From the IMG/VR virus record IMGVR_UViG_3300025009_000896, positions 19,189 through 83,188 of that record: a stretch of DNA of 64,000 bases. One strand, 5' to 3'. Numbering within the stretch: position 1 is the stretch's first letter; the number at the start of each line of letters is the position of its first letter. A program made the translations under genes and the position numbers. Shown here piece by piece: positions 5,217 to 38,993 of this stretch. Under the pieces are notes generated by a model that saw only the letters and a list, made by a program, of their open reading frames with translations, was not told where the DNA came from and made no database searches. This DNA comes from a virus.

Positions 5217-5504
5217 ATGAAAATACAGCCACTTATGCCCAGGGAAAGCCGAGAGTTCGGGTTACTCGGAGAGCGAATAAAACTTGCAAGGCTACGGCGC
5301 AAGTATAGTGCAGAACAGGTGTCCGAAAGAGCGGGGATATCCTTAGACGCGTTATCATCCGTAGAGTCGGGCGATGTTGATGTCAGCATTGGCGTTTACT
5401 TCTCTGTTCTAAGATCATTAGGGTTAGGGGGGGCTATTTATAAGATCGCCGAGGACGACACATTAGGCAGAAAACTACAGGATATAGAATTATTAGGGCG
5501 ATAA
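5217..5504 (+). CDS. XRE-family helix-turn-helix protein
   Basis: LGERIKLARLRRKYSAEQVSERAGIS...VESGD...Y..VL..LGL...DDTLGRKLQD. Confidence 0.85.
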   Translation: MKIQPLMPRESREFGLLGERIKLARLRRKYSAEQVSERAGISLDALSSVESGDVDVSIGVYFSVLRSLGLGGAIYKIAEDDTLGRKLQDIELLGR

Positions 5505-5779
5505 TGCCCCTCTCCCTACTGCCATAGCGGTAATATTAGCTGAAAAGCACTTATATTCCATGAAAAACGCTTATAAGCAGCTATAATCATTATAAATGTC
5601 CCAATCTTGGTAGCCACGGTACTTAAATAGGAACATTTTTAATGATAAAGGTGATGGCAACACGTTAAAACCGCAAGACCCGGTACACATCTTGATGTAT
5701 CGGGTCTCGAAACTCCTTCTTCCGATTATGGAAAGATGAGCACCGCAAAGGTAATAAAAAATAAGCAGCAGCGTCTTAT

Positions 5780-8936: not shown

Positions 8937-9974
8937 TTAGTGATTAGTAAATTCCCTTAGAAAAGACTCTTTTTGCTCAACAGACCAAGTACAACTATAA
9001 TTAGTAAGAAGTTTTAATATTTCATCCAATGGCCTTGTCTTAAGGAAGCGCATCTGATATTCGTTTGGGAATTTTTCCCAATGGAGTGTTTTAAATTGGT
9101 TGTCGGACTGAATCAAACCATATAAGAAGTCTAAGGTTTTATTATTAAAGTTCCTTAAGTTTTCAGAGATAAATTTATTAACTTCGTCATAGTTTAATAT
9201 CCTTGTTTCCATACCAATTAGACACTCTCCCAACAAAATTAGCTGCTCGCTTGATATGTTTTTATTATGCTTTGGCAAAGCAAAAAGATAATAGTAATTA
9301 GGTGTTCTCCTTTTAATGCTACTGAGCAACATTTCAAAAACATCGTCTTGTAAAATACAAGGGCTTCTCATTATCAGATCATGTGGCATATTGGTTTTCC
9401 CCGCCCCATATTCAATCCAATATTGCCCTATTCCGAAAATACATCCATTTGTATTATAGTTGGGTTCTCTGACGTACTGTATTACCTCCTCTTTTGTATA
9501 ATCAAAAGGCATTTTAAACGATTCTATAAACAACACGTCCTTTGTACAATCAGACATTATAATTTTGAGTAAATTAACTACAACCTCTTTTTTTGAATAA
9601 AAGTTTACTGCTAAGTGTACGGCAAGGCTACCGTCGTTTCGGTTACAATACCATCCGTTAGCCTCTTTTTCAATATTAAAGATATTTAATAATATCCTTT
9701 CAATAAAAAGAAACTGATTTTGCTGCTTACTTTTAAAGTATCCTTGGCCGTCATCTTCTGATCGTTTTATTTTAGCAAACTCAGCTCTTAAGTAATCAAG
9801 TAGTCCTATTGCTATTTTTGAGTTGTCTACCTGTTTTTTTAGAATAGACATTTCCTTATATTGTTCCGAGTTTATGTTTAGAGCGTCTATTAGCTCTCTT
9901 TCTAATGATCCAATTTTTTCTGCAATTTGCTTAGACGCAAATTCGTTTAAATCAATTTCTAATAAATTATCCAT
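8937..9974 (-). CDS. hypothetical protein, AT-rich
   Basis: 345-aa ORF with no motif recognised. Confidence 0.65.
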   Translation of the reverse strand: MDNLLEIDLNEFASKQIAEKIGSLERELIDALNINSEQYKEMSILKKQVDNSKIAIGLLDYLRAEFAKIKRSEDDGQGYFKSKQQNQFLFIERILLNIFNIEKEANGWYCNRNDGSLAVHLAVNFYSKKEVVVNLLKIIMSDCTKDVLFIESFKMPFDYTKEEVIQYVREPNYNTNGCIFGIGQYWIEYGAGKTNMPHDLIMRSPCILQDDVFEMLLSSIKRRTPNYYYLFALPKHNKNISSEQLILLGECLIGMETRILNYDEVNKFISENLRNFNNKTLDFLYGLIQSDNQFKTLHWEKFPNEYQMRFLKTRPLDEILKLLTNYSCTWSVEQKESFLREFTNH

Positions 9975-9985
9975 AACTTTATTTA

Positions 9986-10732
9986 TTAAATTACCATTGC
10001 TATAAACCTTCTCTGCACTGCGTAGTACAGCTTGCCGTTATCAAAGTGGGCGTTGTAGCCCTGCCGCTCTAAGGGAATAGGCTTCGTCCCCGGAAGGAAC
10101 AATACCTCATCGCCCTCTTCTAAGTCTTCAAAGTCTGTCCAAGTCTTGTTCTCGTACTCAATATTACAGGAGCCACAGTATTTTATATGTCCTCTGGTTT
10201 CGTCTATCTTCGCCTCGGATAGCACATCCAAGGAACCTAAACTCTTCTGTTTAACTTTCTCTATTATGCAGTACCCGTTAAGACAGATAACATCCTCTAC
10301 CCACTTACTATCGAACTTACTTACCCACCTCCTTCTTTTTGCCACGAACATATCGTCATATGGTATAAGCCTATAAACTGATTCCTCTGTTCTTATCTCT
10401 GCACAGTTGGTAGCAGCCATAGGGTTAAACCATACTAAGTCATCTTCTTTTATCTCTATGGTTGACCTCCATGACGGGGAGAACGAATCATTCCTTTTGA
10501 AATAAAACTTCTCAGGCACCTTGACTACCCTACCGTACACGTCTGCCACGTCTGCTATGTGGTTATCCTTACCCTCGGCATACTGTATGTCTTTGTTAAA
10601 GCCTACGATGATGCCCGATACCGTCTTCTGCTCTTCTTTAGCCTGCGGTATCTCTACCAACACAAGGTTGTGATAAGGCATCTTAATGTTGGCAAGTTCT
10701 GCCTCGGTTAGGTTAGTCTTGTTGATTTCCAT
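9986..10732 (-). CDS. tandem GroES-like domain protein
   Basis: NLVLVE...KTVSGII...YGRVVKVP...IKEDDLVWF; second repeat with LEEGDEVLF. Confidence 0.7.
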   Translation of the reverse strand: MEINKTNLTEAELANIKMPYHNLVLVEIPQAKEEQKTVSGIIVGFNKDIQYAEGKDNHIADVADVYGRVVKVPEKFYFKRNDSFSPSWRSTIEIKEDDLVWFNPMAATNCAEIRTEESVYRLIPYDDMFVAKRRRWVSKFDSKWVEDVICLNGYCIIEKVKQKSLGSLDVLSEAKIDETRGHIKYCGSCNIEYENKTWTDFEDLEEGDEVLFLPGTKPIPLERQGYNAHFDNGKLYYAVQRRFIAMVI

Positions 10733-18239: not shown

Positions 18240-19384
18240 AAGAAGCCTTTACACACATCTATGATACGAATGTGTGGGGATCAGACGAAAGCGCATCAGG
18301 AACAGGATCAGAAATGGGAAGCACAAGAGACATAAGAGAAAATCTGCCAATACTATTTGAAAAGTATAACATCAAAAGTCTATTAGACATTGGCTGTGGA
18401 GACTTTAATTGGATGAGAACTATCGTAGGTGGCCTTGATAGCTACTTGGGGATAGATATTGTCTGCGGAATAGTACAGAGAGATAGGTCTCTATACGAGA
18501 GCGATAAGGTTAAGTTTATGTGCAAAAACCTTAACGACATCAGCGAAGAAGTGTATCAGGACTTTGATGCGGTAATTATAAGGGATGTTTTTGTTCACCT
18601 TCCCCTTGCCGACGTTGCGGCTATGATTGACAAGCTAAGGTTAGGAAACATTCAGTATTTATTTTCGTCTACGTTCCTTGGTTGGGGCACGAATGTAGAC
18701 ATCAGCGCAGGACGATGGAGGCCGATTAACTTACTTAAAGAACCATTTAACCTACCACATCCGATAGAGACTATCAACGGATACTCGGAGCCATACTCGA
18801 TTACCGAAGGCGTTACGTTGACAGATAAGGCACTGCTTATGTGGAGGATGCCAAGGGTCTCAACCAACAAACATAATGTATTCTCCAACTATCATGCTCA
18901 TAGGCAGATAAGAATGATAAGACCGATCTCTGCGACTGACGTGGGCACTGGTGATGGTTATTGGGGTAAGGCTTTGAGCCTTTTGTGTCCTGAGTGTGCC
19001 GTTACGGGGGTAGAACTATCATCTAAGTGGTACGACCACTCTGCCCCTTTGGGTGTTTACTCTACAATGATAAACGATACGATGGTCAATGCCATAAATC
19101 AGGTTAGCGGAGACCTTATTATCTTCGGAGACGTGTTAGAACACGTACCGAAAGAAGATGCTATGGCTACCCTGTCTTTAGCTACGTCTCGATTTAGGTA
19201 TGTGATTATTAACACTCCGGTAGGGTTTGTGGCACAAGAGCACGAAGATACGGAGGAGATACACAGATGTGGGCTGACCCGTGAGGATATGAATGAGTTT
19301 GACGTTATGGAGTATCAGGAGTCTGATGGTAAAATTGAATATAAGGTGTTTAACTGCTTAATACGTGGCACTTATGGGGGTTAG
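18221..19384 (+). CDS. double class I SAM-dependent methyltransferase
   Basis: WG..ESASGTGS...LLDIGCGDFNWM in domain 1; DVGTGDGYWG...FGDVLEHV in domain 2. Confidence 0.85.
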   Translation: MGETNIKEAFTHIYDTNVWGSDESASGTGSEMGSTRDIRENLPILFEKYNIKSLLDIGCGDFNWMRTIVGGLDSYLGIDIVCGIVQRDRSLYESDKVKFMCKNLNDISEEVYQDFDAVIIRDVFVHLPLADVAAMIDKLRLGNIQYLFSSTFLGWGTNVDISAGRWRPINLLKEPFNLPHPIETINGYSEPYSITEGVTLTDKALLMWRMPRVSTNKHNVFSNYHAHRQIRMIRPISATDVGTGDGYWGKALSLLCPECAVTGVELSSKWYDHSAPLGVYSTMINDTMVNAINQVSGDLIIFGDVLEHVPKEDAMATLSLATSRFRYVIINTPVGFVAQEHEDTEEIHRCGLTREDMNEFDVMEYQESDGKIEYKVFNCLIRGTYGG

Positions 19385-30971: not shown

Positions 30972-31658
30972 ATGCAATTAAAGGATATAGATGTTTCAAG
31001 ACTATCATTCGACATATTTGATAGCGACTTCACAACGACTATAAAAGAAAAGATACCTGAGTTCAACGAATACGAAGGAGTGATACCTGAGTTAGACGTA
31101 TTCAGGTTTGTTGTTATAATGTGGGATATGAAGTCTCCTATGTTACGTGAGGTTGATGACTATTATGCACGTATGTATGCTACCGCATCAATGGTGGGGT
31201 TCCCAAGGACTAAAAACAACTTCAGCAAGGAGGCAGACGAGATAATCATAGGTAAGAATGAGAGCGTGAACAGGATGATAGTAGCCTATACTGCGTACAT
31301 GGGCGTACCCGAGTATCAGTACCTAATGGCTTATCAGGCGCTGTTCGCAAGTGAATACGCTAAAGTTTTGAGGGGCAAGGGCGGCAAGGACAGCGACAAG
31401 ATATTAGAGAACGCAAGCGGGAAGGTCACTAAGTTCACGAGGGCTATCTTCGGGTCGGGAGACTACGATGAGTACTCTTTGAGGAGACAGGCGTTGTATC
31501 AGAAGATTGAGAAAGACAAATTAAGATTAAGACCCGAGCAGATCATCAGGGACTTAACGGATAACGGAGATTTGCCTGAAGACTTTAACCCCTACGGTGA
31601 CTACTCTATCGATATAAATAAGGATATTAAGTTCGTTGGTGATGGCAAAGAAGGTTGA
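30972..31658 (+). CDS. putative terminase small subunit or packaging-associated protein
   Basis: Directly upstream of and overlapping TerL; positional inference only. Confidence 0.45.
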   Translation: MQLKDIDVSRLSFDIFDSDFTTTIKEKIPEFNEYEGVIPELDVFRFVVIMWDMKSPMLREVDDYYARMYATASMVGFPRTKNNFSKEADEIIIGKNESVNRMIVAYTAYMGVPEYQYLMAYQALFASEYAKVLRGKGGKDSDKILENASGKVTKFTRAIFGSGDYDEYSLRRQALYQKIEKDKLRLRPEQIIRDLTDNGDLPEDFNPYGDYSIDINKDIKFVGDGKEG

Positions 31659-33978
31659 TTACACCGAACTTTACGTTCCGGCTGACACTGTTTTTGCAAT
31701 TAATAACCTCGATCCAGATCGAAAGACTATCGTTTTGTCTCTGCCCAAACCACCGAACGTAAACACTATTGATAATTTTGGCCTACACCCTGACGAACAG
31801 TATTTCAAACGGTGGAAGACACCTAAGAAGCTATTAACTATTGAAAAAGAGGTCTTAAGAGAACTTCAGGATATTCAAAAGGGCAACAGACAGGAGACTG
31901 TAACGGGGTATAAAATAATTGACAAGTTCTGGGATAAGGTAGAAGAAGAAAGGGACGACTTAGAGGCAGAGATAGACTTCATTAAGAAGCTGTGGTGGCA
32001 TAGGATGAACGGCTATTGGTTCTACAACGACGGCAAACCAACGTACATAACCGGAAGGCACTTCATGTTCCTGAACTTCTTTTATCAACCCGATATAACT
32101 ACTAACGACGGGTACCCTGAGTACAGAGACAGACACCGGAGGGAGTTTCTATTCAGAGAGTATCTGAGGCACGCTACCGAGACGTTTGCCAAGAGAGATG
32201 AAAGAGGGTGGGCTGTGCCTAATGCTGATGGTAGTTATGATATGATTGATGTGGGGTCGAGAGTAAGCTATGGAGACATACATCCTAAGTCCCGAAGGAA
32301 CGGTTCTACAATGATGGCATTGTGTGATATGATTGAAAGTTCGGAAAGGAGTTTTGGTATCTACTCTACTATAATTTCAAAAGACGGTGAGGCCACCGAG
32401 GAGCACTACAACCTTAAGCTACTTCCTTCGTGGGTAATGAGGCCGTATTTTCTTAAACCCGTGTGGCAGGGATCGTCCCAACCAACGCAGATAAAATATT
32501 TTCCTCCTAAAAACTACTACGGCAACGAAGCCCTGATGAGTGTCATTGACTACACCGTATCGGCCTCGGAGACTAAAAAAGATGGGTCTAAGTTTAATGG
32601 AGAACTCGTATGCGATGAGGAGGGCAAGGTTTCTGGATTAGGAGTCAACGTCTTACAGAGGTGGGACGTAAATAAGAACGCACTTGCCCTTGGTGACGGT
32701 ACTAAGATATTAGGATACTCTACTCACATCTCAACGGTAGAAGACATCAATGCTGCGGGTATGGCCTTCTTGGATATGCTTGAACTCTCTGACTTTTATC
32801 AAAGGGGAGAGAGTGGGCAGACTACATCAGGTCTTATGGCTCACCTGTATCCTTCTTATGACGGTCAGGAAAACTTCATAGATCGGTATGGTATGTCAGT
32901 CATTGACACCCCCACAGACCGACAGTGCCGCTTATCTCATTCAGCAATCTTCGCTACGCTTAAAAAGGGAGCCAAGCAATATCAACAGGAAAAGAGAGAT
33001 GACTTCTTAAAGAAGGGCACCCCTGCTGCTATGCAGTCTTATAGGGCTTATGTTAAGAAGTACCCGTGGAAGACAAGCGAACTCTATATGTCAACAGTCT
33101 CAGACATGGGCTTTGACTATGAGATACTTGACACCCGAATCATGGAGTTGAGGAAGATGAAGTCCTTGGGTAAGATGCCATATAAGGTCGGGAACTTCTA
33201 CCGTGAGGGAGACCCGTTAGAGGGTAGGGTATATTGGAAGACAGAACCCGAAGGGAAGTTTGAGTTATCCATGGAACTTAAGCCTGAAGAAGCAAATCTT
33301 AAACGTAAAACTTTGGTTTGGGATGGCACTAAGATGTCTATGGTGCCAGCTTGGGAGCCTGTTTATAAAACGAGGTTTACCGCAGGGGCTGATCCATTTC
33401 GTTTCAGGAACAGCAAAGACATCACCACTAATAAGCAATCTGATGGCGGAATAGCAGTATTATGGCACGATTTTTCTAAGCCCAATAAGTCAGAGAATAG
33501 GAAGTTTGTATTGTCATATAGGTATAGACCTCATACATTAGAAGAATACTGTGAGGACTGCATAAAAGTGTGTGAGTATTTTGGGGCTATGTGTTATCCC
33601 GAAAACAACCTCACAGGAGTATATGAGCACTTCATTAAGAGGATGAGGGGCGGATATCTTAAGTACGATCAAGACTCGATCACGGGTCGAGCAAAGGATA
33701 CCCCCGGATATTACGCATCTCCGGGAACAATAAACGACGGGATGTCCCAAATTAAAGATTACATAGTCTTCAATGGAGCAGAAGAAAATCACTTAAGTTT
33801 TTTGGAAGAGGTGCGTGGCATGAGAAGTGTAGATGATTTAACTAATAACGATAGGTTTGCAGCGCACATGGCCAGCTTACTCGGCGCCCTCAGCAGCTAC
33901 GGCAAGGCATCGGATTTTATGAATACTCAAACAATAGACCTCGGGAAAGTCTCTTGGTTACAAAAAAGATCATTTTAA
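31642..33978 (+). CDS. terL: terminase large subunit (crAss-like)
   Basis: GYWFYNDGKPTYITGRH.M.L; KSRRNGST Walker A variant; CDEEGK Walker B; nuclease AGADPF...SDG...YPENN...ND...A. Confidence 0.9.
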   Translation: MAKKVDYTELYVPADTVFAINNLDPDRKTIVLSLPKPPNVNTIDNFGLHPDEQYFKRWKTPKKLLTIEKEVLRELQDIQKGNRQETVTGYKIIDKFWDKVEEERDDLEAEIDFIKKLWWHRMNGYWFYNDGKPTYITGRHFMFLNFFYQPDITTNDGYPEYRDRHRREFLFREYLRHATETFAKRDERGWAVPNADGSYDMIDVGSRVSYGDIHPKSRRNGSTMMALCDMIESSERSFGIYSTIISKDGEATEEHYNLKLLPSWVMRPYFLKPVWQGSSQPTQIKYFPPKNYYGNEALMSVIDYTVSASETKKDGSKFNGELVCDEEGKVSGLGVNVLQRWDVNKNALALGDGTKILGYSTHISTVEDINAAGMAFLDMLELSDFYQRGESGQTTSGLMAHLYPSYDGQENFIDRYGMSVIDTPTDRQCRLSHSAIFATLKKGAKQYQQEKRDDFLKKGTPAAMQSYRAYVKKYPWKTSELYMSTVSDMGFDYEILDTRIMELRKMKSLGKMPYKVGNFYREGDPLEGRVYWKTEPEGKFELSMELKPEEANLKRKTLVWDGTKMSMVPAWEPVYKTRFTAGADPFRFRNSKDITTNKQSDGGIAVLWHDFSKPNKSENRKFVLSYRYRPHTLEEYCEDCIKVCEYFGAMCYPENNLTGVYEHFIKRMRGGYLKYDQDSITGRAKDTPGYYASPGTINDGMSQIKDYIVFNGAEENHLSFLEEVRGMRSVDDLTNNDRFAAHMASLLGALSSYGKASDFMNTQTIDLGKVSWLQKRSF

Positions 33979-33989
33979 TTTTTTATTAT

Positions 33990-33997
33990 TATCTTTG
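33990..33997 (+). promoter_or_regulatory. promoter -7 box for tRNA unit 1
   Basis: TATCTTTG; no clear -33 TTTG. Confidence 0.6.
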
Positions 33998-34001
33998 TGA
34001 C

Positions 34002-34052
34002 ATGAGAATGAATCAACATATAGAGCAGCCGATAAACTTACTTGGTGGGTGA
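34002..34052 (+). CDS. leader peptide 1 (MRMNQHIEQPINLLGG)
   Basis: Short ORF between promoter and terminator; core QHIEQPI matches downstream tRNAs Pro, Ile(UAU), His, Glu, Gln. Confidence 0.75.
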   Translation: MRMNQHIEQPINLLGG

Positions 34053-34072
34053 GGTAACTCTATATTGTATAT

Positions 34073-34103
34073 AGCCCTCCCCACAAGGAGGGTTTTTTGT
34101 TTT
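34073..34103 (+). terminator. attenuator terminator 1
   Basis: AGCCCTCC-CCACAA-GGAGGGTT followed by TTTTGTTTT. Confidence 0.85.
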
Positions 34104-34104
34104 A

Positions 34105-34189
34105 CGGAGTGTAGGTCTGTAGCTGGTAGCAGTCCTGCCTTGGAAGCAGGTGGAGCAATCCCTCGTCGGTTCGATCCCGGCCACTCCGA
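34105..34189 (+). tRNA. tRNA-Pro(UGG) with enlarged variable region
   Basis: Acceptor CGGAGTG/CACTCCG; anticodon arm CCTGC-CTTGGAA-GCAGG; GGTTCGATCCC T arm. Confidence 0.85.
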
Positions 34190-34194
34190 CTTAT

Positions 34195-34265
34195 TGAGGC
34201 TTCGTTTAACGGTAGGACGCACGGCTTATACCCATGTAATCAGAGTCCAATTCTCTGAGCCTCAA
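34195..34265 (+). tRNA. tRNA-Ile(UAU)
   Basis: Acceptor TGAGGCT/AGCCTCA; anticodon arm CACGG-CTTATAC-CCATG. Confidence 0.8.
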
Positions 34266-34267
34266 CT

Positions 34268-34340
34268 GTGTCAGATGCTCGTATGGACAGAGTGACGGAT
34301 TGTGACTCCGTTAGAAGCCAGTTCAAATCTGGTCTGACAC
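34268..34340 (+). tRNA. tRNA-His(GUG)
   Basis: 8-bp acceptor including G-1 (GTGTCAGA/TCTGACAC); ACGGA-TTGTGAC-TCCGT. Confidence 0.88.
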
Positions 34341-34345
34341 CCTAT

Positions 34346-34416
34346 GTTCGGTTCGTCTATCGGTAGGACGGCGGGTTTTCATCCCGTAAAGGCGAGTTCG
34401 ATTCTCGCACCGAATA
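34346..34416 (+). tRNA. tRNA-Glu(UUC)
   Basis: GTTCGGT/ACCGAAT; GCGGG-TTTTCAT-CCCGT; GTTCGATTC. Confidence 0.9.
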
Positions 34417-34421
34417 CATAT

Positions 34422-34492
34422 TGCCCTGTCGTATAGAGGTGGTACACATGGCTTTGAACCATGCGGAGAAGGGTCAGTACCTTCCGGGGCAT
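34422..34492 (+). tRNA. tRNA-Gln(UUG), atypical T loop
   Basis: TGCCCTG/CGGGGCA; CATGG-CTTTGAA-CCATG; T arm GAAGG-GTCAGTA-CCTTC. Confidence 0.8.
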
Positions 34493-34501
34493 CAAAATAA
34501 A

Positions 34502-34532
34502 TTTGCATATTAAATTAAAAGTATTATCTTTG
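34502..34532 (+). promoter_or_regulatory. promoter for tRNA unit 2
   Basis: TTTG-N19-TATCTTTG. Confidence 0.85.
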
Positions 34533-34551
34533 CAGTAATTAAGGCATAAGG

Positions 34552-34626
34552 ATGCAAATGGTAAGAAAAAATATGGTGAATATTGACCGCACAGGCGCAA
34601 CCGTGCGAAAGGGTATCCCCATATAG
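34552..34626 (+). CDS. leader peptide 2 (MQMVRKNMVNIDRTGATVRKGIPI)
   Basis: 22 of 24 residues belong to the 10 amino acids served by the downstream tRNAs. Confidence 0.8.
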   Translation: MQMVRKNMVNIDRTGATVRKGIPI

Positions 34627-34651
34627 TTCTTTGAAAGGATTATTAAGGCGG

Positions 34652-34683
34652 ATGCCCTCACAAAATGGGGGCATTTTTATTTT
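34652..34683 (+). terminator. attenuator terminator 2
   Basis: ATGCCCTCA-CAAAA-TGGGGGCAT followed by TTTTATTTT. Confidence 0.85.
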
Positions 34684-34753
34684 GGCTTATAGTTTAATGG
34701 TAGAACGCCTCGCTGATACCGAGGTAATTCAAGTCCGATTCTTGGTGAGCCAA
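34683..34753 (+). tRNA. tRNA-Ile(GAU)
   Basis: TGGCTTA/TGAGCCA; CCTCG-CTGATAC-CGAGG. Confidence 0.85.
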
Positions 34754-34759
34754 CAACAT

Positions 34760-34830
34760 TGTGGGGTAGAGTAACGGTAACTCGTGGGGCCCATAACCCC
34801 AAGCTGAGGGTTCAACTCCCCCTCCCGCAA
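34760..34830 (+). tRNA. tRNA-Met(CAU), initiator-like
   Basis: TGTGGGG/TCCCGCA; TGGGG-CCCATAA-CCCCA with consecutive G-C pairs. Confidence 0.85.
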
Positions 34831-34836
34831 CTAATT

Positions 34837-34910
34837 GGGAATGTAGCTCGTATGGAAGTAGCTACGGCCTGTTAAGCCGAAGGTAGAAGGTTCGAGTCCT
34901 TCCGTTCCCG
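34837..34910 (+). tRNA. tRNA-Asn(GUU)
   Basis: GGGAATG/CGTTCCC; ACGGC-CTGTTAA-GCCGA; GGTTCGAGTCC. Confidence 0.88.
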
Positions 34911-34914
34911 CAAT

Positions 34915-34986
34915 GCTCTTATGGTGTAATGAACAGCACAGGGGTCTTCTAATCCCTTAGTTTGGGTTTGATTCCTAATAGGAGCA
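34915..34986 (+). tRNA. tRNA-Arg(UCU)
   Basis: GCTCTTA/TAGGAGC; anticodon loop CTTCTAA. Confidence 0.78.
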
Positions 34987-34991
34987 CAAAT

Positions 34992-35066
34992 GCCTTCGTC
35001 GGCCCCTTGGTGGGGAACCAGACTGTCACTCTGGTAAAACAGACGGATCGTAACCGTTCGGGGGCG
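34992..35066 (+). tRNA. tRNA-Asp(GUC)
   Basis: GCCTTCG/CGGGGGC; CCAGA-CTGTCAC-TCTGG. Confidence 0.82.
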
Positions 35067-35069
35067 CAA

Positions 35070-35144
35070 GGGCTGTTCGTATAGTGGCTATTACTTCTGT
35101 TTTGCAAGCAGGAAACGAGATTTCGATTATCTCACAGTCCACCA
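35070..35144 (+). tRNA. tRNA-Ala(UGC)
   Basis: GGGCTGT/ACAGTCC with G3:U70 identity pair; TCTGT-TTTGCAA-GCAGG; encoded CCA. Confidence 0.88.
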
Positions 35145-35146
35145 AT

Positions 35147-35218
35147 GCGGGATAGGTGTTGACACATACACAGGAGTCTTCCAAACTTCAGTAGACGGAG
35201 GGTTACCGTCATCCCGCT
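35147..35218 (+). tRNA. tRNA-Gly(UCC), atypical D and T loops
   Basis: GCGGGAT/ATCCCGC with U73; GGAGT-CTTCCAA-ACTTC; T arm GACGG-AGGGTTA-CCGTC. Confidence 0.75.
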
Positions 35219-35222
35219 CTAA

Positions 35223-35293
35223 GTGATCGTAGCAAATCGGTTATGCCCCGCCCTTTTAAGGCGGTGAGATTGGTTCGACTCCAATCGGTCACA
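35223..35293 (+). tRNA. tRNA-Lys(UUU)
   Basis: GTGATCG/CGGTCAC; CCGCC-CTTTTAA-GGCGG; GGTTCGACTCC. Confidence 0.9.
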
Positions 35294-35298
35294 CAAAT

Positions 35299-35371
35299 GC
35301 GCTCATAGCATAATGGAAAGTGTGCAAGGCTACGAACCTTGGCGGTTGGAGTTCGACTCTTCATGGGCGTA
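35299..35371 (+). tRNA. tRNA-Arg(ACG)
   Basis: GCGCTCA/TGGGCGT; CAAGG-CTACGAA-CCTTG. Confidence 0.88.
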
Positions 35372-35376
35372 CTAAT

Positions 35377-35448
35377 GCTCCATAAGCATTGATGGCGATG
35401 CGCTAGTCTTGTAAACTTGAAAGCAGGGTTCGATTCCTTGATGGAGCT
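35377..35448 (+). tRNA. tRNA-Thr(UGU)
   Basis: GCTCCAT/ATGGAGC; CTAGT-CTTGTAA-ACTTG; GGTTCGATTCC. Confidence 0.88.
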
Positions 35449-35468
35449 CAGGTGGAATTTACAAACTA

Positions 35469-35500
35469 TTTGGAGGTTACAAATCTTTTGTATATCTTTG
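35469..35500 (+). promoter_or_regulatory. promoter of the inserted HNH gene
   Basis: TTTG-N20-TATCTTTG. Confidence 0.75.
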
Positions 35501-35504
35501 TGTT

Positions 35505-35924
35505 ATGGAAAAGAAAAAAGAATGTCCTAAATGTGGAATTAAAAAAACAATAGATTATTTTACTAAGTCTAAATCGCGCAAGGATGGGTTTGGGTCTTTT
35601 TGCCTAGAGTGTGGAAGAAAATACGGGCGGCTTCATTATAAAAATAATAAAGCTGAATATATTAAAAGAATATCCTCTAACAAAGAAAGGGTTCGTGATC
35701 TTTATATAACTCTTAAAAAGTCATATGTATGCAGTAAGTGCGGGGACAATAGATGGTATGTGTTAGATTTTCATCACGAAGGAAATAAGGAATCTGACAT
35801 AGCCCATATGGCATCGGAGGGATATTCAATAGATTCCATTAAAAAAGAGATAGAAAAATGTATAGTGTTATGTTCTAATTGCCACAGAGAATTACATTAC
35901 AAACAAAATGGGGGCATAGTTTAA
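35505..35924 (+). CDS. HNH homing endonuclease inside the tRNA array
   Basis: CPKC...CLEC zinc finger; CSKCG...LDFHH...EIEKCIVLCSNCHRELH; 3' end overlaps tRNA-Val. Confidence 0.9.
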   Translation: MEKKKECPKCGIKKTIDYFTKSKSRKDGFGSFCLECGRKYGRLHYKNNKAEYIKRISSNKERVRDLYITLKKSYVCSKCGDNRWYVLDFHHEGNKESDIAHMASEGYSIDSIKKEIEKCIVLCSNCHRELHYKQNGGIV

Positions 35925-35979
35925 TTGGCAAAACGTTTGTGTTACATACAAGTCATGACGTTCGAGTCGTCTGCCCCTA
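35910..35979 (+). tRNA. tRNA-Val(UAC)
   Basis: GGGGGCA/TGCCCCT; TTTGT-GTTACAT-ACAAG; GTTCGAGTC. Confidence 0.8.
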
Positions 35980-36016
35980 CTAATATTGTTCGATTCCAGT
36001 AGAGACTACAAGTTTA

Positions 36017-36048
36017 TTTGCATATATTAAAAACAATGATTACCTTTG
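36017..36048 (+). promoter_or_regulatory. promoter for tRNA unit 3
   Basis: TTTG-N20-TACCTTTG. Confidence 0.85.
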
Positions 36049-36055
36049 CCTTGAA

Positions 36056-36115
36056 ATGAGAAATTGTTGGTCATATAGTTCGTTTTTACTCTTGCTCTCA
36101 AAGCGAGGTAGATGA
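36056..36115 (+). CDS. leader peptide 3 (MRNCWSYSSFLLLLSKRGR)
   Basis: Core CWSYSSFLLLLS; downstream tRNAs are Leu, Leu, Ser, Tyr, Ser. Confidence 0.8.
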   Translation: MRNCWSYSSFLLLLSKRGR

Positions 36116-36137
36116 CCTATATATCCATATAGCATAG

Positions 36138-36168
36138 ACCTCGCCCATAAAGCGGGGTTTTTTATTTT
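36138..36168 (+). terminator. attenuator terminator 3
   Basis: ACCTCGC-CCATAAA-GCGGGGT followed by TTTTTATTTT. Confidence 0.85.
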
Positions 36169-36244
36169 GCTCCGGTAGCCCAATTGGTAGAATGGCAACG
36201 GGTTTAAGCCCCGTTCAGTGTCGGTTCGAATCCGACTCGGAGTA
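36169..36244 (+). tRNA. tRNA-Leu(UAA), short variable loop
   Basis: GCTCCGG/TCGGAGT; ACGGG-TTTAAGC-CCCGT; GGTTCGAATCC. Confidence 0.88.
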
Positions 36245-36249
36245 CAAAT

Positions 36250-36325
36250 GCCGCAGTAGCAGAATTGGCACGTGCGTTAGTCTTAGAAACTAATAGTTAT
36301 GTGAGTTCGAATCTCACCTGCGGTA
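36250..36325 (+). tRNA. tRNA-Leu(UAG), short variable loop
   Basis: GCCGCAG/CTGCGGT; TTAGT-CTTAGAA-ACTAA; GTTCGAATC. Confidence 0.88.
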
Positions 36326-36329
36326 CTAA

Positions 36330-36421
36330 GGATGGGTGAACCCCAGTTGGCCTAAGGGGGACGGTCTTGAAAACCGTAGGTCGCTCAAAACGGCGTGGGG
36401 GTTCGAGTCCCTCCCCATCCG
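36330..36421 (+). tRNA. tRNA-Ser(UGA)
   Basis: GGATGGG/CCCATCC with G73; ACGGT-CTTGAAA-ACCGT; long variable arm. Confidence 0.9.
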
Positions 36422-36427
36422 CAATAT

Positions 36428-36496
36428 GGGAGTAATTCTTTGGAGAAGACGGGTCTGTAACACCCCAAATAGAAAGTTCGATGCTTCCTACTCCCA
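36428..36496 (+). tRNA. tRNA-Tyr(GUA), compact or degenerate
   Basis: GGGAGTA/TACTCCC; CGGGT-CTGTAAC-ACCCC; short D and variable regions. Confidence 0.65.
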
Positions 36497-36501
36497 CTAA
36501 T

Positions 36502-36586
36502 GGAGGGCTGCTGTAATGGTATCAGAGCGGTTCGCTAAACCGTCCGTCAGCAATGGCGTGGCAGGGTTCGACTCCCCCGTCCTCCG
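36502..36586 (+). tRNA. tRNA-Ser(GCU)
   Basis: GGAGGGC/GTCCTCC with G73; GCGGT-TCGCTAA-ACCGT; long variable arm. Confidence 0.85.
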
Positions 36587-36635
36587 CACTGATTTCTCAC
36601 ATTCACTATCTTTGTGGATATAAAAATATCCGCAA

Positions 36636-38993
36636 GTGATTAGACTCGAAAAGTATATCGGCGGGATAAGCCCAAGTAGAGACATAGCCCCCGAGAAAAA
36701 GACAGAAGTATATTGTAGAAAAAATGCCGAGTTTCTGTATGGTCTTTGGTGCGGATCGGCCACAGCTTGGGGCTATGACTCCCTCTCGTTTTTTAATGAG
36801 ATGCGGCAGTATAGCAATGGGGCTCAGGATACAAATCAATATAAAAGTTTTTTAACCAACTCGGGGGCAAATAACTCTGAGACTTTTAGTCTGTATGATA
36901 ATGATGCAGGCATAACGCAACGAGCAAAACGCGACGGATATTATAACCTGCTATGGCAGAATCTTTCTCCTGCGCCGAAGATTCTCAATGCATTACACGG
37001 GGCTTTGGGTTCTTATGATTACGATCTTTACTGCGATACCATAGATGCCAATTCGAGGGGATTGGTAGAGTTTGAAAAGTTTAAGAAGTTTCACGAGGCT
37101 CGTGATATAAAGTGGCAAACGGAATATAAAACTAAGGCAGGTATCCCCGTCGACGAAGACGCTAACTTTCCTAAGACACTTGAGGAATTAGAAGCCTTCT
37201 CCGCAAGGGAAGGGTTTAAACTGAATATAGCCCGTGCTATGCAGAAGGTGCTAAGGCATGGGTTTAATGTCAGCGATTGGGACGGGTCTATCAGGAAGAA
37301 GCTGTTAGACGACCTTATTACTTTAGGCTACTGCGCCGCAGAAGACTTGTATGACGACGAAGATAGGCTGTTTAAAACACAATGGCTTGACCCCGCAAGG
37401 ACTGTGATGCAATTTTCCCACGAGAAAGATTATTCGGATGCAGAATATGGTGGGCACTTCTCAGAGTGGACAATCTCTAATGTAAGGCGTAAAAGACCTG
37501 ATCTTACTGAAGATGAGTTGTATGCTTTGGCTAAAAACAATAAGGGCAATTTTAACAACCCAACAATACAGTGGGGGGAGAGAACGAGTATGCTTGACAT
37601 AACAAGTAACTCTTACCTTTATGATGACTTCAAGGTAGCAGTGTTTAAGGCTTATTGGATAGATACCGACACTTACAAGAGCCTCTACTATAACAACAAC
37701 TCCGGTCGGGAGATGGTCAAAGAGGTGGGGTATGATGAGAAGATAACCCCCTTAACCAAAAACCAAATAGCTAAAGGCAAAAAGCAAGAGGTAAAACAGA
37801 CTAAAATCAGGGTTGTTTATCAGTGTTCATGGGTAGTGGGGTCTGAGATATGTTGGGATCATGGTAAGCTATTGATGGGTGCAAGGCCGCAGCCGTCTAA
37901 GCCTAAGATACCTATCCACGTTGAGCAGTTGCTACAACCTTCTATTGTCTACAGGCTTAAGCCTATCTTAGACTCAATAGCCTTGACGTGGCTACAGCAT
38001 CAGAACTCTATGGCTAAGATGATAGAGAAGGGCTATGCCGTGAATATGAGCATGTTGATGAATGTAACGATGAATGGGAAGGATGCATTAGACCCTGCTG
38101 GTGTTTTAAATATGTGGAAGCAGACGGGGATTCTACCTTATATGTATGGTGGGGCTAATGGGCAATACCCGGGTGGGGCCGCTATTCCCGTCACTCCTAT
38201 TGACGGAGGATTAGGGAATAGAATACAGGAGACCGCTATGGCCTTAGAGACTAACTTCAAGCTAATTGAGGAGATAGTGGGGATAAACCCTGTTGCAATG
38301 GGGTCTACTCCTACTAAAGACTCACAGGTAGGTACTACCGAGATGGCGATGCAGGCCACATCCAACGTGCTTAAACCTATAGTAGAGGGTATGTTCGAGA
38401 TCAAGCAGAGTCTTGGTTCAAGTTTAATGTTAAGAACACAGATAGGTCTTAGGGTAGATAAAGACATAAGAGATGCCTATGCAGGTATTATCTCTCCTTC
38501 TGATATTAAGTCGTTGGTTTTGGCAGAACACAATAGTGTTCAGTATGGCATTAGCCTTAAGGCCAAGCCTGATGATAAACGTAAAGCTACGCTGCTTAAC
38601 TTCATTACTCTTGAAGTAGAGAAGGGCACATTGGGTTCACCGGAAGGAATGTACTTTGCCGAAAGATTAGAATCGGGTGCAGACATGATAGAACTCCGTC
38701 AGGAGATAGCCTATGCAATAGAAAAAGGACAGCAGCGTAAGATGCAAGAGTCGTTGGCTACTATCCAAGAGCAGAATAAGGGTATGCTTGAAAACGAACA
38801 GCTTAAGGGGCAGAACGAACAGGCTAAGATCAATGCCGAGGGACAGGTGAAGATGGCTGAAGAAGCCCTAAGAGGGGATATAAAGCATAAGTTACAGAGA
38901 CAACAGAATAATGCAGAATTAATGAGCAGACTCTTTGATGATGTGGCTGCTGAAAAAGAAATAAAGAATGACAACACCAGAAGACAGGCTTAA
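36636..38993 (+). CDS. portal protein (crAss-like)
   Basis: 785 aa between TerL and capsid; R.Y..G.Q...YK; IEEIVGIN...GSTP; Q-rich coiled-coil C-terminus; promoter TATCTTTG at 36607. Confidence 0.8.
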   Translation: MIRLEKYIGGISPSRDIAPEKKTEVYCRKNAEFLYGLWCGSATAWGYDSLSFFNEMRQYSNGAQDTNQYKSFLTNSGANNSETFSLYDNDAGITQRAKRDGYYNLLWQNLSPAPKILNALHGALGSYDYDLYCDTIDANSRGLVEFEKFKKFHEARDIKWQTEYKTKAGIPVDEDANFPKTLEELEAFSAREGFKLNIARAMQKVLRHGFNVSDWDGSIRKKLLDDLITLGYCAAEDLYDDEDRLFKTQWLDPARTVMQFSHEKDYSDAEYGGHFSEWTISNVRRKRPDLTEDELYALAKNNKGNFNNPTIQWGERTSMLDITSNSYLYDDFKVAVFKAYWIDTDTYKSLYYNNNSGREMVKEVGYDEKITPLTKNQIAKGKKQEVKQTKIRVVYQCSWVVGSEICWDHGKLLMGARPQPSKPKIPIHVEQLLQPSIVYRLKPILDSIALTWLQHQNSMAKMIEKGYAVNMSMLMNVTMNGKDALDPAGVLNMWKQTGILPYMYGGANGQYPGGAAIPVTPIDGGLGNRIQETAMALETNFKLIEEIVGINPVAMGSTPTKDSQVGTTEMAMQATSNVLKPIVEGMFEIKQSLGSSLMLRTQIGLRVDKDIRDAYAGIISPSDIKSLVLAEHNSVQYGISLKAKPDDKRKATLLNFITLEVEKGTLGSPEGMYFAERLESGADMIELRQEIAYAIEKGQQRKMQESLATIQEQNKGMLENEQLKGQNEQAKINAEGQVKMAEEALRGDIKHKLQRQQNNAELMSRLFDDVAAEKEIKNDNTRRQA

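Follow-up and report, generated by a model that had tools for sequence, protein, structure and literature searches.

The third transcription unit of a transfer RNA (tRNA) gene cluster in a phage, known from the linear, 83188-bp IMG/VR record IMGVR_UViG_3300025009_000896 (CheckV completeness 86%), is preceded by a short leader, leader 3, which is likely to be a leader-peptide attenuator with codons matched to its tRNA unit, the last three genes of which would have been lost. The window, which is the whole stretch of DNA that was analysed, covers positions 19,189 to 83,188 of that record (64,000 nucleotides (nt)), and coordinates refer to it unless a relative is named. In the proposed ancestral arrangement, unit 3 would have carried genes for Leu(taa), sometimes Leu(caa), Leu(tag), Ser(tga), Tyr, Ser(gct), Trp, Phe, and Cys tRNAs behind a leader whose core was written in Leu, Ser, Tyr, Trp, Phe, and Cys codons only. 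This lineage would then have deleted the Trp, Phe, and Cys genes and kept the leader, in which the TGT, TGG, and TTT codons would be the surviving record of the former cargo.

34105-36587, + strand: tRNA cluster of 21 tRNAs in three transcription units, between the genes for the large terminase (TerL) and the portal protein
36017-36020, + strand: -33-like TTTG of the unit-3 promoter, read from the sequence, 20 nt 5' of the -7 motif
36041-36048, + strand: -7 promoter motif TACCTTTG, 4-8 nt 5' of the leader-3 ATG in 8/8 loci
36056-36115, + strand: leader open reading frame (ORF) 3, 19 codons and TGA, peptide MRNCWSYSSFLLLLSKRGR, conserved in frame in 8/8 loci
36065-36067, + strand: TGT (Cys), without a cognate phage tRNA in this genome
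36068-36070, + strand: TGG (Trp), without a cognate phage tRNA in this genome
36083-36085, + strand: TTT (Phe), without a cognate phage tRNA in this genome

A short ORF with its own start and stop codons lies between the promoter and the genes that it would regulate, and begins 7 nt past the -7 motif. The promoter is of the TTTG/TAnnTTTG type, which we take to be the Bacteroidota promoter consensus with TAnnTTTG as the -7 element. The octamer TATCTTTG fits TAnnTTTG, has 15 copies on the + strand and 7 on the - strand of the genome, with 2.1 expected per strand, and precedes all three tRNA units, the HNH gene, and the portal gene; the TTTGCATAT context of the -33-like TTTG is also found upstream of unit 2. 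The ATG of the HNH gene (35505) sits only 4 nt after TATCTTTG, indicating that near-leaderless starts are used in this genome.

The ORF reads ATG AGA AAT TGT TGG TCA TAT AGT TCG TTT TTA CTC TTG CTC TCA AAG CGA GGT AGA TGA, and the Cys, Trp, and Phe codons that the sequence-only reading had reported are located inside it. Codons 4-15, 12 in a row, all fall within the set {L,S,Y,W,F,C}, and nine of them are still served by the unit. These residues make up 25.4% of all residues genome-wide, giving a run of 12 a probability of ~7e-8, and under the genome composition a stretch of 18 codons would include Cys, Trp, and Phe at least once each with a probability of ~0.021. The tRNA genes that follow the leader are listed below.

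36169-36245, + strand: tRNA-Leu(taa), ARAGORN; Rfam tRNA model 54.2 bits
36250-36326, + strand: tRNA-Leu(tag), ARAGORN; Rfam tRNA model 55.9 bits
36330-36422, + strand: tRNA-Ser(tga), ARAGORN; best Rfam clan match tRNA-Sec, 45.4 bits
36428-36497, + strand: tRNA-Tyr(gta), relaxed ARAGORN only; Rfam 26.8 bits, below the gathering score of 29
36502-36587, + strand: tRNA-Ser(gct), ARAGORN; final gene of unit 3 in this phage

A tRNA-Sec model as the top score is frequent for tRNAs with a long arm. The tandem tRNA genes in this phage genome form a phage tRNA gene cluster, in which ARAGORN finds 18 tRNAs at default settings and, when relaxed, adds Gln(ttg) and Tyr(gta). Together with an aberrant Gly(tcc) at 35147-35219, which is called by ARAGORN at -ps70 only and aligns with the Gly(tcc) of relatives, the census comes to 21 tRNAs for 17 amino acids. 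It had been claimed from the sequence alone that 17 amino acids are covered and that only Cys, Trp, and Phe are missing, and ARAGORN, Infernal, and blastn agree on this. No Cys, Trp, or Phe tRNA was found in the 83188-bp record by ARAGORN, the 17 matches of the Infernal model RF00005 on the record all lie inside the cluster and include none of the three, and a blastn search of the record with the Trp, Phe, and Cys tRNAs of relatives gave no match. The whole-record scan that the sequence-only reading had called for is consequently negative for all three.

The relatives carry what is missing here. The terminase has hundreds of relatives, and an alignment of 24 of them (A1) was used to fetch 18 viral and 80 metagenome loci; a pattern derived from the leader added L099, L101, and L108, the last being the same contig as L047. 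A homologous unit 3 is present on seven distinct contigs (L022, L042, L046, L047, L099, L101, and L013), whose terminases are 62% (L022) or ~40% (the others) identical to that of this phage. In all seven, the order is Leu(taa), Leu(tag), Ser(tga), Tyr(gta), Ser(gct), Trp(cca), Phe(gaa), and Cys(gca), with an additional Leu(caa) after Leu(taa) in three, and the Trp, Phe, and Cys genes stand directly 3' of Ser(gct) with spacers of 2-5 nt. Trp is called by ARAGORN in six relatives, at -ps80 only in L047, and in L042 it has a cloverleaf fold with a CCA anticodon in the loop CUCCAAA. Phe is called by ARAGORN in six and is recognised in L022 by an Rfam score of 46.2 bits and a GAA loop, and Cys is called by ARAGORN in L046 and L013. 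The comparison proposed from the sequence alone, namely whether related phages with this leader have the three tRNAs and conserve the three codons, was thereby answered on both counts: 7/7 relatives with leader 3 have Trp, Phe, and Cys in the unit, and the codons are kept in 8/8 leaders. The claim that unit 3 once carried these tRNAs and lost them is supported by this gene content together with the TerL tree described below.

Leader-3 peptide of this phage: MRNCWSYSSFLLLLSKRGR
Leader-3 peptide of L022: MRNLWCSYSSFLLLLLRRGG
Leader-3 peptide of L042: MKKLWCSYSFSLLLLLGRGG
Leader-3 peptide of L046: MKKFWCSYSSFLLLLLRRGR
Leader-3 peptide of L047 and L101: MKNLWCSYSLFSLLLLRRGG
Leader-3 peptide of L099: MKKLWCSYSSFLLLLSGRGS
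Leader-3 peptide of L013: MRNLCLYSFSSLWLKLAG

Each of the eight leaders contains Trp, Cys, and Phe codons, at least one of each kind, and TTT is always among the Phe codons. At the Cys/Trp site, six relatives read TGG TGT, while L013 has TGT as codon 5 and TGG as codon 13. The run of codons belonging to the unit's own set is 11-13 long in the leaders of the relatives and 12 long in the window, without any codon of unit 1, so that the regulatory codons are cognate to what the operon supplies. Ser, Phe, and Leu change places among the leaders while the composition stays within the set, suggesting that codon content, and not the peptide sequence, is what matters. Leaders 1 and 2 are also conserved, with own-unit codon runs of 6-10 and 13-20, and neither of them is T-rich. 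An examination of the peptides bore out the earlier remark that the three leaders of this genome jointly sample all 20 amino acids.

Downstream of the promoter, the leader can form three helices that overlap one another.

36068-36127, + strand: protector (anti-antiterminator, 1:2) hairpin, in which the coding segment 36068-36096 pairs with 36102-36127
36103-36144, + strand: antiterminator (2:3), formed by GCGAGGT/ACCTCGC, ATG/CAT, and CTATAT/ATATAG
36137-36168, + strand: intrinsic terminator, with a stem of 36137-36144 and 36152-36159 followed by the T-run TTTTTTATTTT

The antiterminator described in the sequence-only reading holds in every detail: GCGAGGT (36103-36109) is the exact reverse complement of ACCTCGC (36138-36144), and the pairing encloses ATG/CAT at 36112-14 and 36133-35 and the CTATAT-ATCC-ATATAG hairpin at 36117-36132. 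An intrinsic terminator, which ends 1 nt 5' of tRNA-Leu, stands before the regulated genes, the antiterminator uses the 5' arm of this terminator, and the anti-antiterminator is formed from the coding segment; the stop codon (TGA 36113-36115) lies inside segment 2, as it does in every leader 3. The order of promoter, ATG, ORF, protector, antiterminator, terminator, and tRNA is the same in 8/8 loci.

Pairs were counted in an alignment of the eight leader-3 sequences (A2), with a slid 3' partner and 500 shuffles as controls. In the protector, 90.7% of the alignment cells are paired, as compared to 36-52% with the 3' partner slid, and five pairs change on both sides, a number that is equalled by 1/500 shuffles. 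The corresponding values are 87.0% versus 34-60% for the antiterminator, in which the closing pair is CG in four leaders, UA in two, and UG in one, and 89.5% versus 30-67% for the terminator. A 7-nt complement of ACCTCGC arises by chance in 170/100000 mononucleotide shuffles of the 82 nt upstream. The minimum free energy fold of the free leader, which consists of the long protector hairpin and the terminator in 8/8 loci, has an energy of -34.7 kcal/mol and a z score of -3.62 relative to shuffled sequences.

Translation of the ORF and stall-dependent read-through are predictions, the latter explored by folding with a model ribosome, which masks the RNA up to 12 nt past the first base of the codon in the A site. 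Two transcripts were folded, the full-length one at equilibrium and one cut just before the 3' arm of the terminator, which represents the state when the choice is made. In the cut transcript, with codons 2-13 in the A site, the 5' arm of the terminator is paired over all of its 7 nt, within the antiterminator, in six leaders, and in the other two the arm is fully paired from codon 4 (L099) or paired at 6/7 nt from codon 3 (L013). When the ribosome is at codon 15 or beyond, or at the stop codon, only 0-4 nt of the arm are paired, and without a ribosome the arm is free or mostly free in 6/8 leaders.

With this anatomy, leader 3 would have the same three states as the attenuators of trp and phe. 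The Bacteroidota-type promoter would start a near-leaderless transcript whose first 60 nt encode a 19-codon test peptide. In the absence of a ribosome, the coding segment would pair with the following segment as the protector, and the terminator would form. A ribosome that reaches the TGA would cover GCGAGGT, and the terminator would form again. A ribosome stalled at about codons 2-13 would leave GCGAGGT free to pair with ACCTCGC, allowing the polymerase to enter the tRNA genes. Slow reading of its own codons would switch the unit on, and an ample supply of its tRNAs would switch it off again. In this phage, the TGT, TGG, and TTT codons probably still trigger read-through, which would bring no benefit for the reading of those three codons.

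The direction of the change can be approached through a quick maximum-likelihood tree of 26 terminases. In this TerL tree, the phage is sister to L019, in a clade that also includes L022, and the other six loci with a full unit fall in the other main clade; since the full unit occurs on both sides of the deepest split between phages that bear the cluster, a loss on the line of this phage is favoured. The cluster changes its position and content, being upstream of the terminase in L022, L042, L046, L047, L101, L039, L043, and L045, and between terminase and portal in this phage, L099, and L013. The terminases of L003 and L022 are near-identical (branches of 0.08), and L022 has a full 23-gene cluster upstream of TerL; as the tRNA content of the two differs, the cluster appears to be gained or lost on very short time scales. 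In L043, only the promoter and Cys remain of the cluster. In a further locus, L039 (4184-4620, identical in L040 and L041), a Pro/Trp hybrid, Phe, and Cys lie behind leader 1 (MIRIQHIEQPISLLTG) and the terminator of that leader; the hybrid is joined at a short shared ACCCCC, with the stretch between the two genes deleted. As read from their sequences, these loci hold a second leader that has persisted although the cargo behind it has ceased to match.

Several observations weigh against the proposed attenuator and its history. Within the leader, CTC occurs twice and is a poor match to Leu(tag), and the six amino acids of the set all have T-initial codons, of which second- and third-position mutations stay in the set or give stops; the argument from the exchange of Ser, Phe, and Leu is weakened, because the genetic code itself keeps such changes within the set. 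In the folding, the cut transcripts of L042 and L047 already adopt the antiterminator without a ribosome. The full-length fold favours the antiterminator for stalls at about codons 9-13 only, and not for those at the Cys and Trp codons, and L046 never switches; the sensing of Cys and Trp depends on the assumption of kinetic folding, since only the folding of the cut transcript places these codons in the stall-sensitive stretch. Covariation is thin in a sample of eight leaders of which L047 and L101 are 98% alike, the proportion of cells paired is equalled in 20/500 shuffles for the antiterminator and in 97/500 for the terminator, and the scored structures were derived from L022, one of the aligned sequences, which favours them. 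As to the relatives, the Cys genes of L022, L042, L047, L099, and L101 are called by neither ARAGORN nor Rfam; these five align with the called Cys genes and have a reduced D arm and a GCA loop, and the acceptor stem of L099 changes on both sides. With regard to the loss, the unit-3 tree is unrooted and poorly supported (42-66%), the 10 kb upstream of TerL are free of tRNA genes in L003, which is sister to L022, the TerL tree may not be the tree of the cluster, because the cluster comes and goes quickly, and, with the record at 86% completeness, the three tRNAs might lie in unassembled DNA.

This last point underlies the explanation that nothing was lost, the three tRNAs being located in the unassembled part or having been gained by the relatives after the split. 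The linear and incomplete record, a cluster that behaves as a mobile cassette either upstream or downstream of TerL, and an unrooted unit tree that is compatible with a root on the branch of this phage would all fit. In the relatives, however, the three genes come directly after Ser(gct), and in this phage that place is filled by the portal promoter (TATCTTTG at 36607, 19 nt past Ser(gct)); related full-length contigs measure 83-86 kb, similar to this record, full units are found in both TerL clades, and the leader of this phage already holds the three codons, leaving only a very slim chance for the absence of any loss. Hardly more probable is an explanation in which the ORF is untranslated, the hairpin and its T-run either terminate transcription partially and constitutively or mark a site of RNA processing, and the codon match is a by-product. 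The core of the leader is indeed largely constrained by base pairing, and a T-rich stem in one frame enriches the T-initial codons of all six amino acids, but frame, ATG, and stop are kept in 8/8 loci, leaders 1 and 2 are not T-rich and yet match their own, different tRNA sets, and the stop is always within segment 2, as in classical attenuators. A constitutive terminator between a promoter and its sole genes would also be wasteful.

The codons may alternatively have been selected as live sensors of host tRNAs, such that an attack on the tRNAs that read UNN codons would switch the unit on. This explanation, which we consider rather unlikely, is compatible with the loss and differs only in why the codons persist. 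The leader differs from that of L022, the nearest relative, precisely at the Trp/Cys spot (AAT TGT TGG TCA versus AAT TTA TGG TGT TCC), through a 3-nt deletion and two substitutions, and yet one Cys and one Trp codon remain, which hints at constraint; the reordering may, however, predate the loss, and TGG and TGT are only one third-position change apart. A contig from another study (X6, ~90% identical) has, among the differences listed, none in 36056-36099, and the TGT TGG order appears to be common to at least one further lineage, but the contig is 253 nt long only, the following tRNAs lie outside it, and the listed differences leave out 16. Kinetic folding puts the Cys and Trp codons in the stall-sensitive stretch, as live sensing would have it. 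On the other hand, inducing Leu, Ser, and Tyr tRNAs would be no help to the decoding of Cys, Trp, and Phe, and in L039-L041 a plain deletion was enough to leave a leader without its former cargo. An attenuator written to fit a fuller unit, of which the last three genes were deleted, accordingly stays the likely account.

The relationship of leader 3 to the other two leaders is less straightforward. The sequence-only reading had proposed a common ancestry of attenuators 1 and 3 on the strength of a shared inner stem, which is CTATAT-ATCC-ATATAG (36117-36132) in attenuator 3 and CTATAT-TGT-ATATAG (~34060-34074) in attenuator 1. The identical CTATAT/ATATAG stem turned out to be peculiar to this genome and is not conserved in the relatives. 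A covariance model, R1, built from the eight leader-3 sequences, matches attenuator 1 in seven loci (38.3 bits, E 3.6e-6, in L022; 33.5 in L039), including attenuator 1 of this phage (28.7 bits, E 7.5e-4), and the terminator part of attenuator 2 (24.6 bits); the E-values are rough, and the promoter that the leaders share and features common to terminators in general are part of the model. These comparisons support a shared design of the two attenuators and agree with their common descent, which is only moderately supported.

Leader-peptide attenuators of enterobacteria include trpL, hisL, leuL, thrL, and ilv. Together with pheL, they share with leader 3 a short ORF with regulatory codons, three alternative helices (1:2, 2:3, and 3:4), a terminator, and a stop codon in segment 2, and in the thr and ilv leaders, as in leader 3, several amino acids are sensed by one leader. 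Leader 3 differs from the enterobacterial attenuators in that it would regulate tRNAs and not biosynthetic enzymes, so that its output feeds back on the sensed quantity, and in that it polls six amino acids, is near-leaderless, has a Bacteroidota-type promoter, and is borne by a phage. The attenuation model of enterobacterial amino-acid operons, with three states for trp and phe, is set out in PMC3082878. According to the same source, the deletion of one of the two tRNA-Phe genes de-represses pheA 6-7-fold, indicating that a leader-peptide attenuator can read tRNA supply and not only amino acids (PMC3082878). Leader 3 is not a member of the Rfam family Trp_leader (RF00513), which scores 27.7 bits here and 30.0-30.5 in L042, L047, and L101 against a gathering score of 41, and matches to Leu_leader are likewise below the threshold and do not amount to membership.

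T-box riboswitches (PMC2879506) resemble leader 3 in that a 5' leader reads tRNA status and picks a terminator or an antiterminator. Unlike leader 3, the T-box binds uncharged tRNA without translation and controls synthetase and amino-acid genes, while leader 3 is predicted to use a translated ORF as its sensor; the T-box model gave no match at E <= 1 in 33000-38000 or in the loci of the seven relatives. The nearest published system in function is the trn operon of Anabaena sp. PCC 7120, which, according to PMC8421152, is a supernumerary, horizontally spread tRNA array that stays silent until translation is impaired and is induced under translational stress through promoter repeats. In the main text of PMC8421152, words in 'attenuat-', 'leader', and 'terminator' occur 0 times. 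Phage tRNA clusters in general resemble the present one in being a dense tRNA block in a tailed phage, situated by the packaging genes and with a homing-type HNH gene inside; PMC6409571 is a survey of such clusters. A full-text literature search returned no description of leader-peptide attenuation of tRNA genes or of a switch before phage tRNA clusters. E. coli pheV, as a tRNA-Phe gene that might have a Phe-rich leader and attenuator, was tried as a precedent and rejected, the K-12 promoters running directly into the tRNA and the terminator lying downstream.

The searches for further leaders had narrow yields. A blastn search (distant mode) of 33950-36650 against INPHARED gave matches to single tRNAs only and no homologous leader, the portal as a single query over viral_contigs returned 0 relatives, and the pattern TGGTGTTCNTATAGT, which is too loose, returned at least 119 stretches of viral_contigs with no new true leader. 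The leader-3 pattern had 0 matches over genome_contigs, and the leader-2 pattern over viral_contigs returned L099 and L101 only. Among the sequencing runs listed for the stretch, none was of RNA.

The surroundings of the cluster and the loci of the relatives offer a number of further observations. The genes that flank the cluster are as follows.

31636-33978: large terminase (TerL), phrog_6681, E 7.1e-58
36801 (ATG) to 38993: portal protein, phrog_6547, E 3.5e-47

The nearest TerL relatives as proteins are P0002, P0003, and P0004 (82%, 79%, and 75% identical). Six terminase relatives (P0003, P0008, P0028, P0029, P0031, and P0109) are ~1160-1190 aa long and have precomputed Pfam matches to PF05203/PF05204, most of them with PF14528; these we take to be Hom_end/LAGLIDADG homing-endonuclease domains, which would mean inteins within TerL. 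Between Ser(gct) and the portal promoter at 36607, no tRNA remnant was found. In the region 36607-36800, a perfect hairpin, GGATAT-AAAA-ATATCC (36617-36632), lies 3' of the portal promoter, ~170 nt before the conserved portal ATG at 36801, and an in-frame GTG extension runs from 36636. An HNH endonuclease gene (35505-35924, phrog_2255, E 1.2e-32) resides inside tRNA unit 2, between Thr and Val, and its region (35493-35924) has its own TATCTTTG promoter; the gene may aid the movement of the cluster as a cassette.

Within the cluster, the aberrant Gly(tcc) has an unusual T loop, AGGGTTA, and no Rfam match at E <= 1. The five tRNAs that remain in unit 3 here are exactly the class II (long-variable-arm) ones, Leu, Ser, and Tyr, and a full unit 3 decodes all U-initial sense codons as well as CUN and AGY. 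Among the relatives, tRNA-Cys(gca) of L022 (3668-3738) and its homologues in L042, L047, L099, and L101 combine a strongly reduced D arm with acceptor, anticodon, and T stems that are intact. In L099, an insertion at 5273-5700 separates Tyr from Ser(gct) in unit 3 and comprises a small ORF and a TTATCTTTG promoter for it; upstream of the terminase gene of the same locus, 508-615 gives a weak Trp_leader-like match (25.2 bits, E 0.77), maybe a leader or chance. L013 contains an Rfam permuted-tmRNA match on the - strand (9897-10234, 49.2 bits, gathering score 47).

Three tRNA genes could be predicted from the unexpected Cys, Trp, and Phe codons of leader 3, and 7/7 relatives carry them at the exact place; this match is the strongest comparative argument, short of bench work, that the leaders are written to fit their cargo. 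It also provides a natural leader whose input codons partly lack their output genes and which can be compared with the full version in relatives. The logic of attenuation, which is textbook material for biosynthesis genes, would here gate tRNA genes, and the decoding speed that is sensed would be the very quantity that the output repairs. If confirmed, such gating would reveal how phages dose tRNAs on demand, which bears on the question of why phages carry tRNAs at all, whether to serve codon bias or to escape from tRNA-targeting defence.

A wider and tentative extension, to which we give less than an even chance, is that the three leaders act as a gauge with three channels, which together follow how all 20 amino acids are decoded and with which the phage would switch on the block that the cell lacks. 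The shortage could arise, for instance, after the host cleaves its tRNAs or stops making them as a defence, a scenario that we regard as similarly speculative. Channel 3 in its full form would, with the same reserve, gauge every U-initial sense codon (Phe, Leu, Ser, Tyr, Cys, and Trp). The tRNAs for U-initial codons have A36-A37 in common and, in model bacteria, carry the i6A37 modification, and channel 3 may also report the state of this modification. If the gauge reading is true, the gauge has outlived three of its tRNAs, which would be a natural uncoupling of sensor and output, with the sensor evolving more slowly than the cargo.

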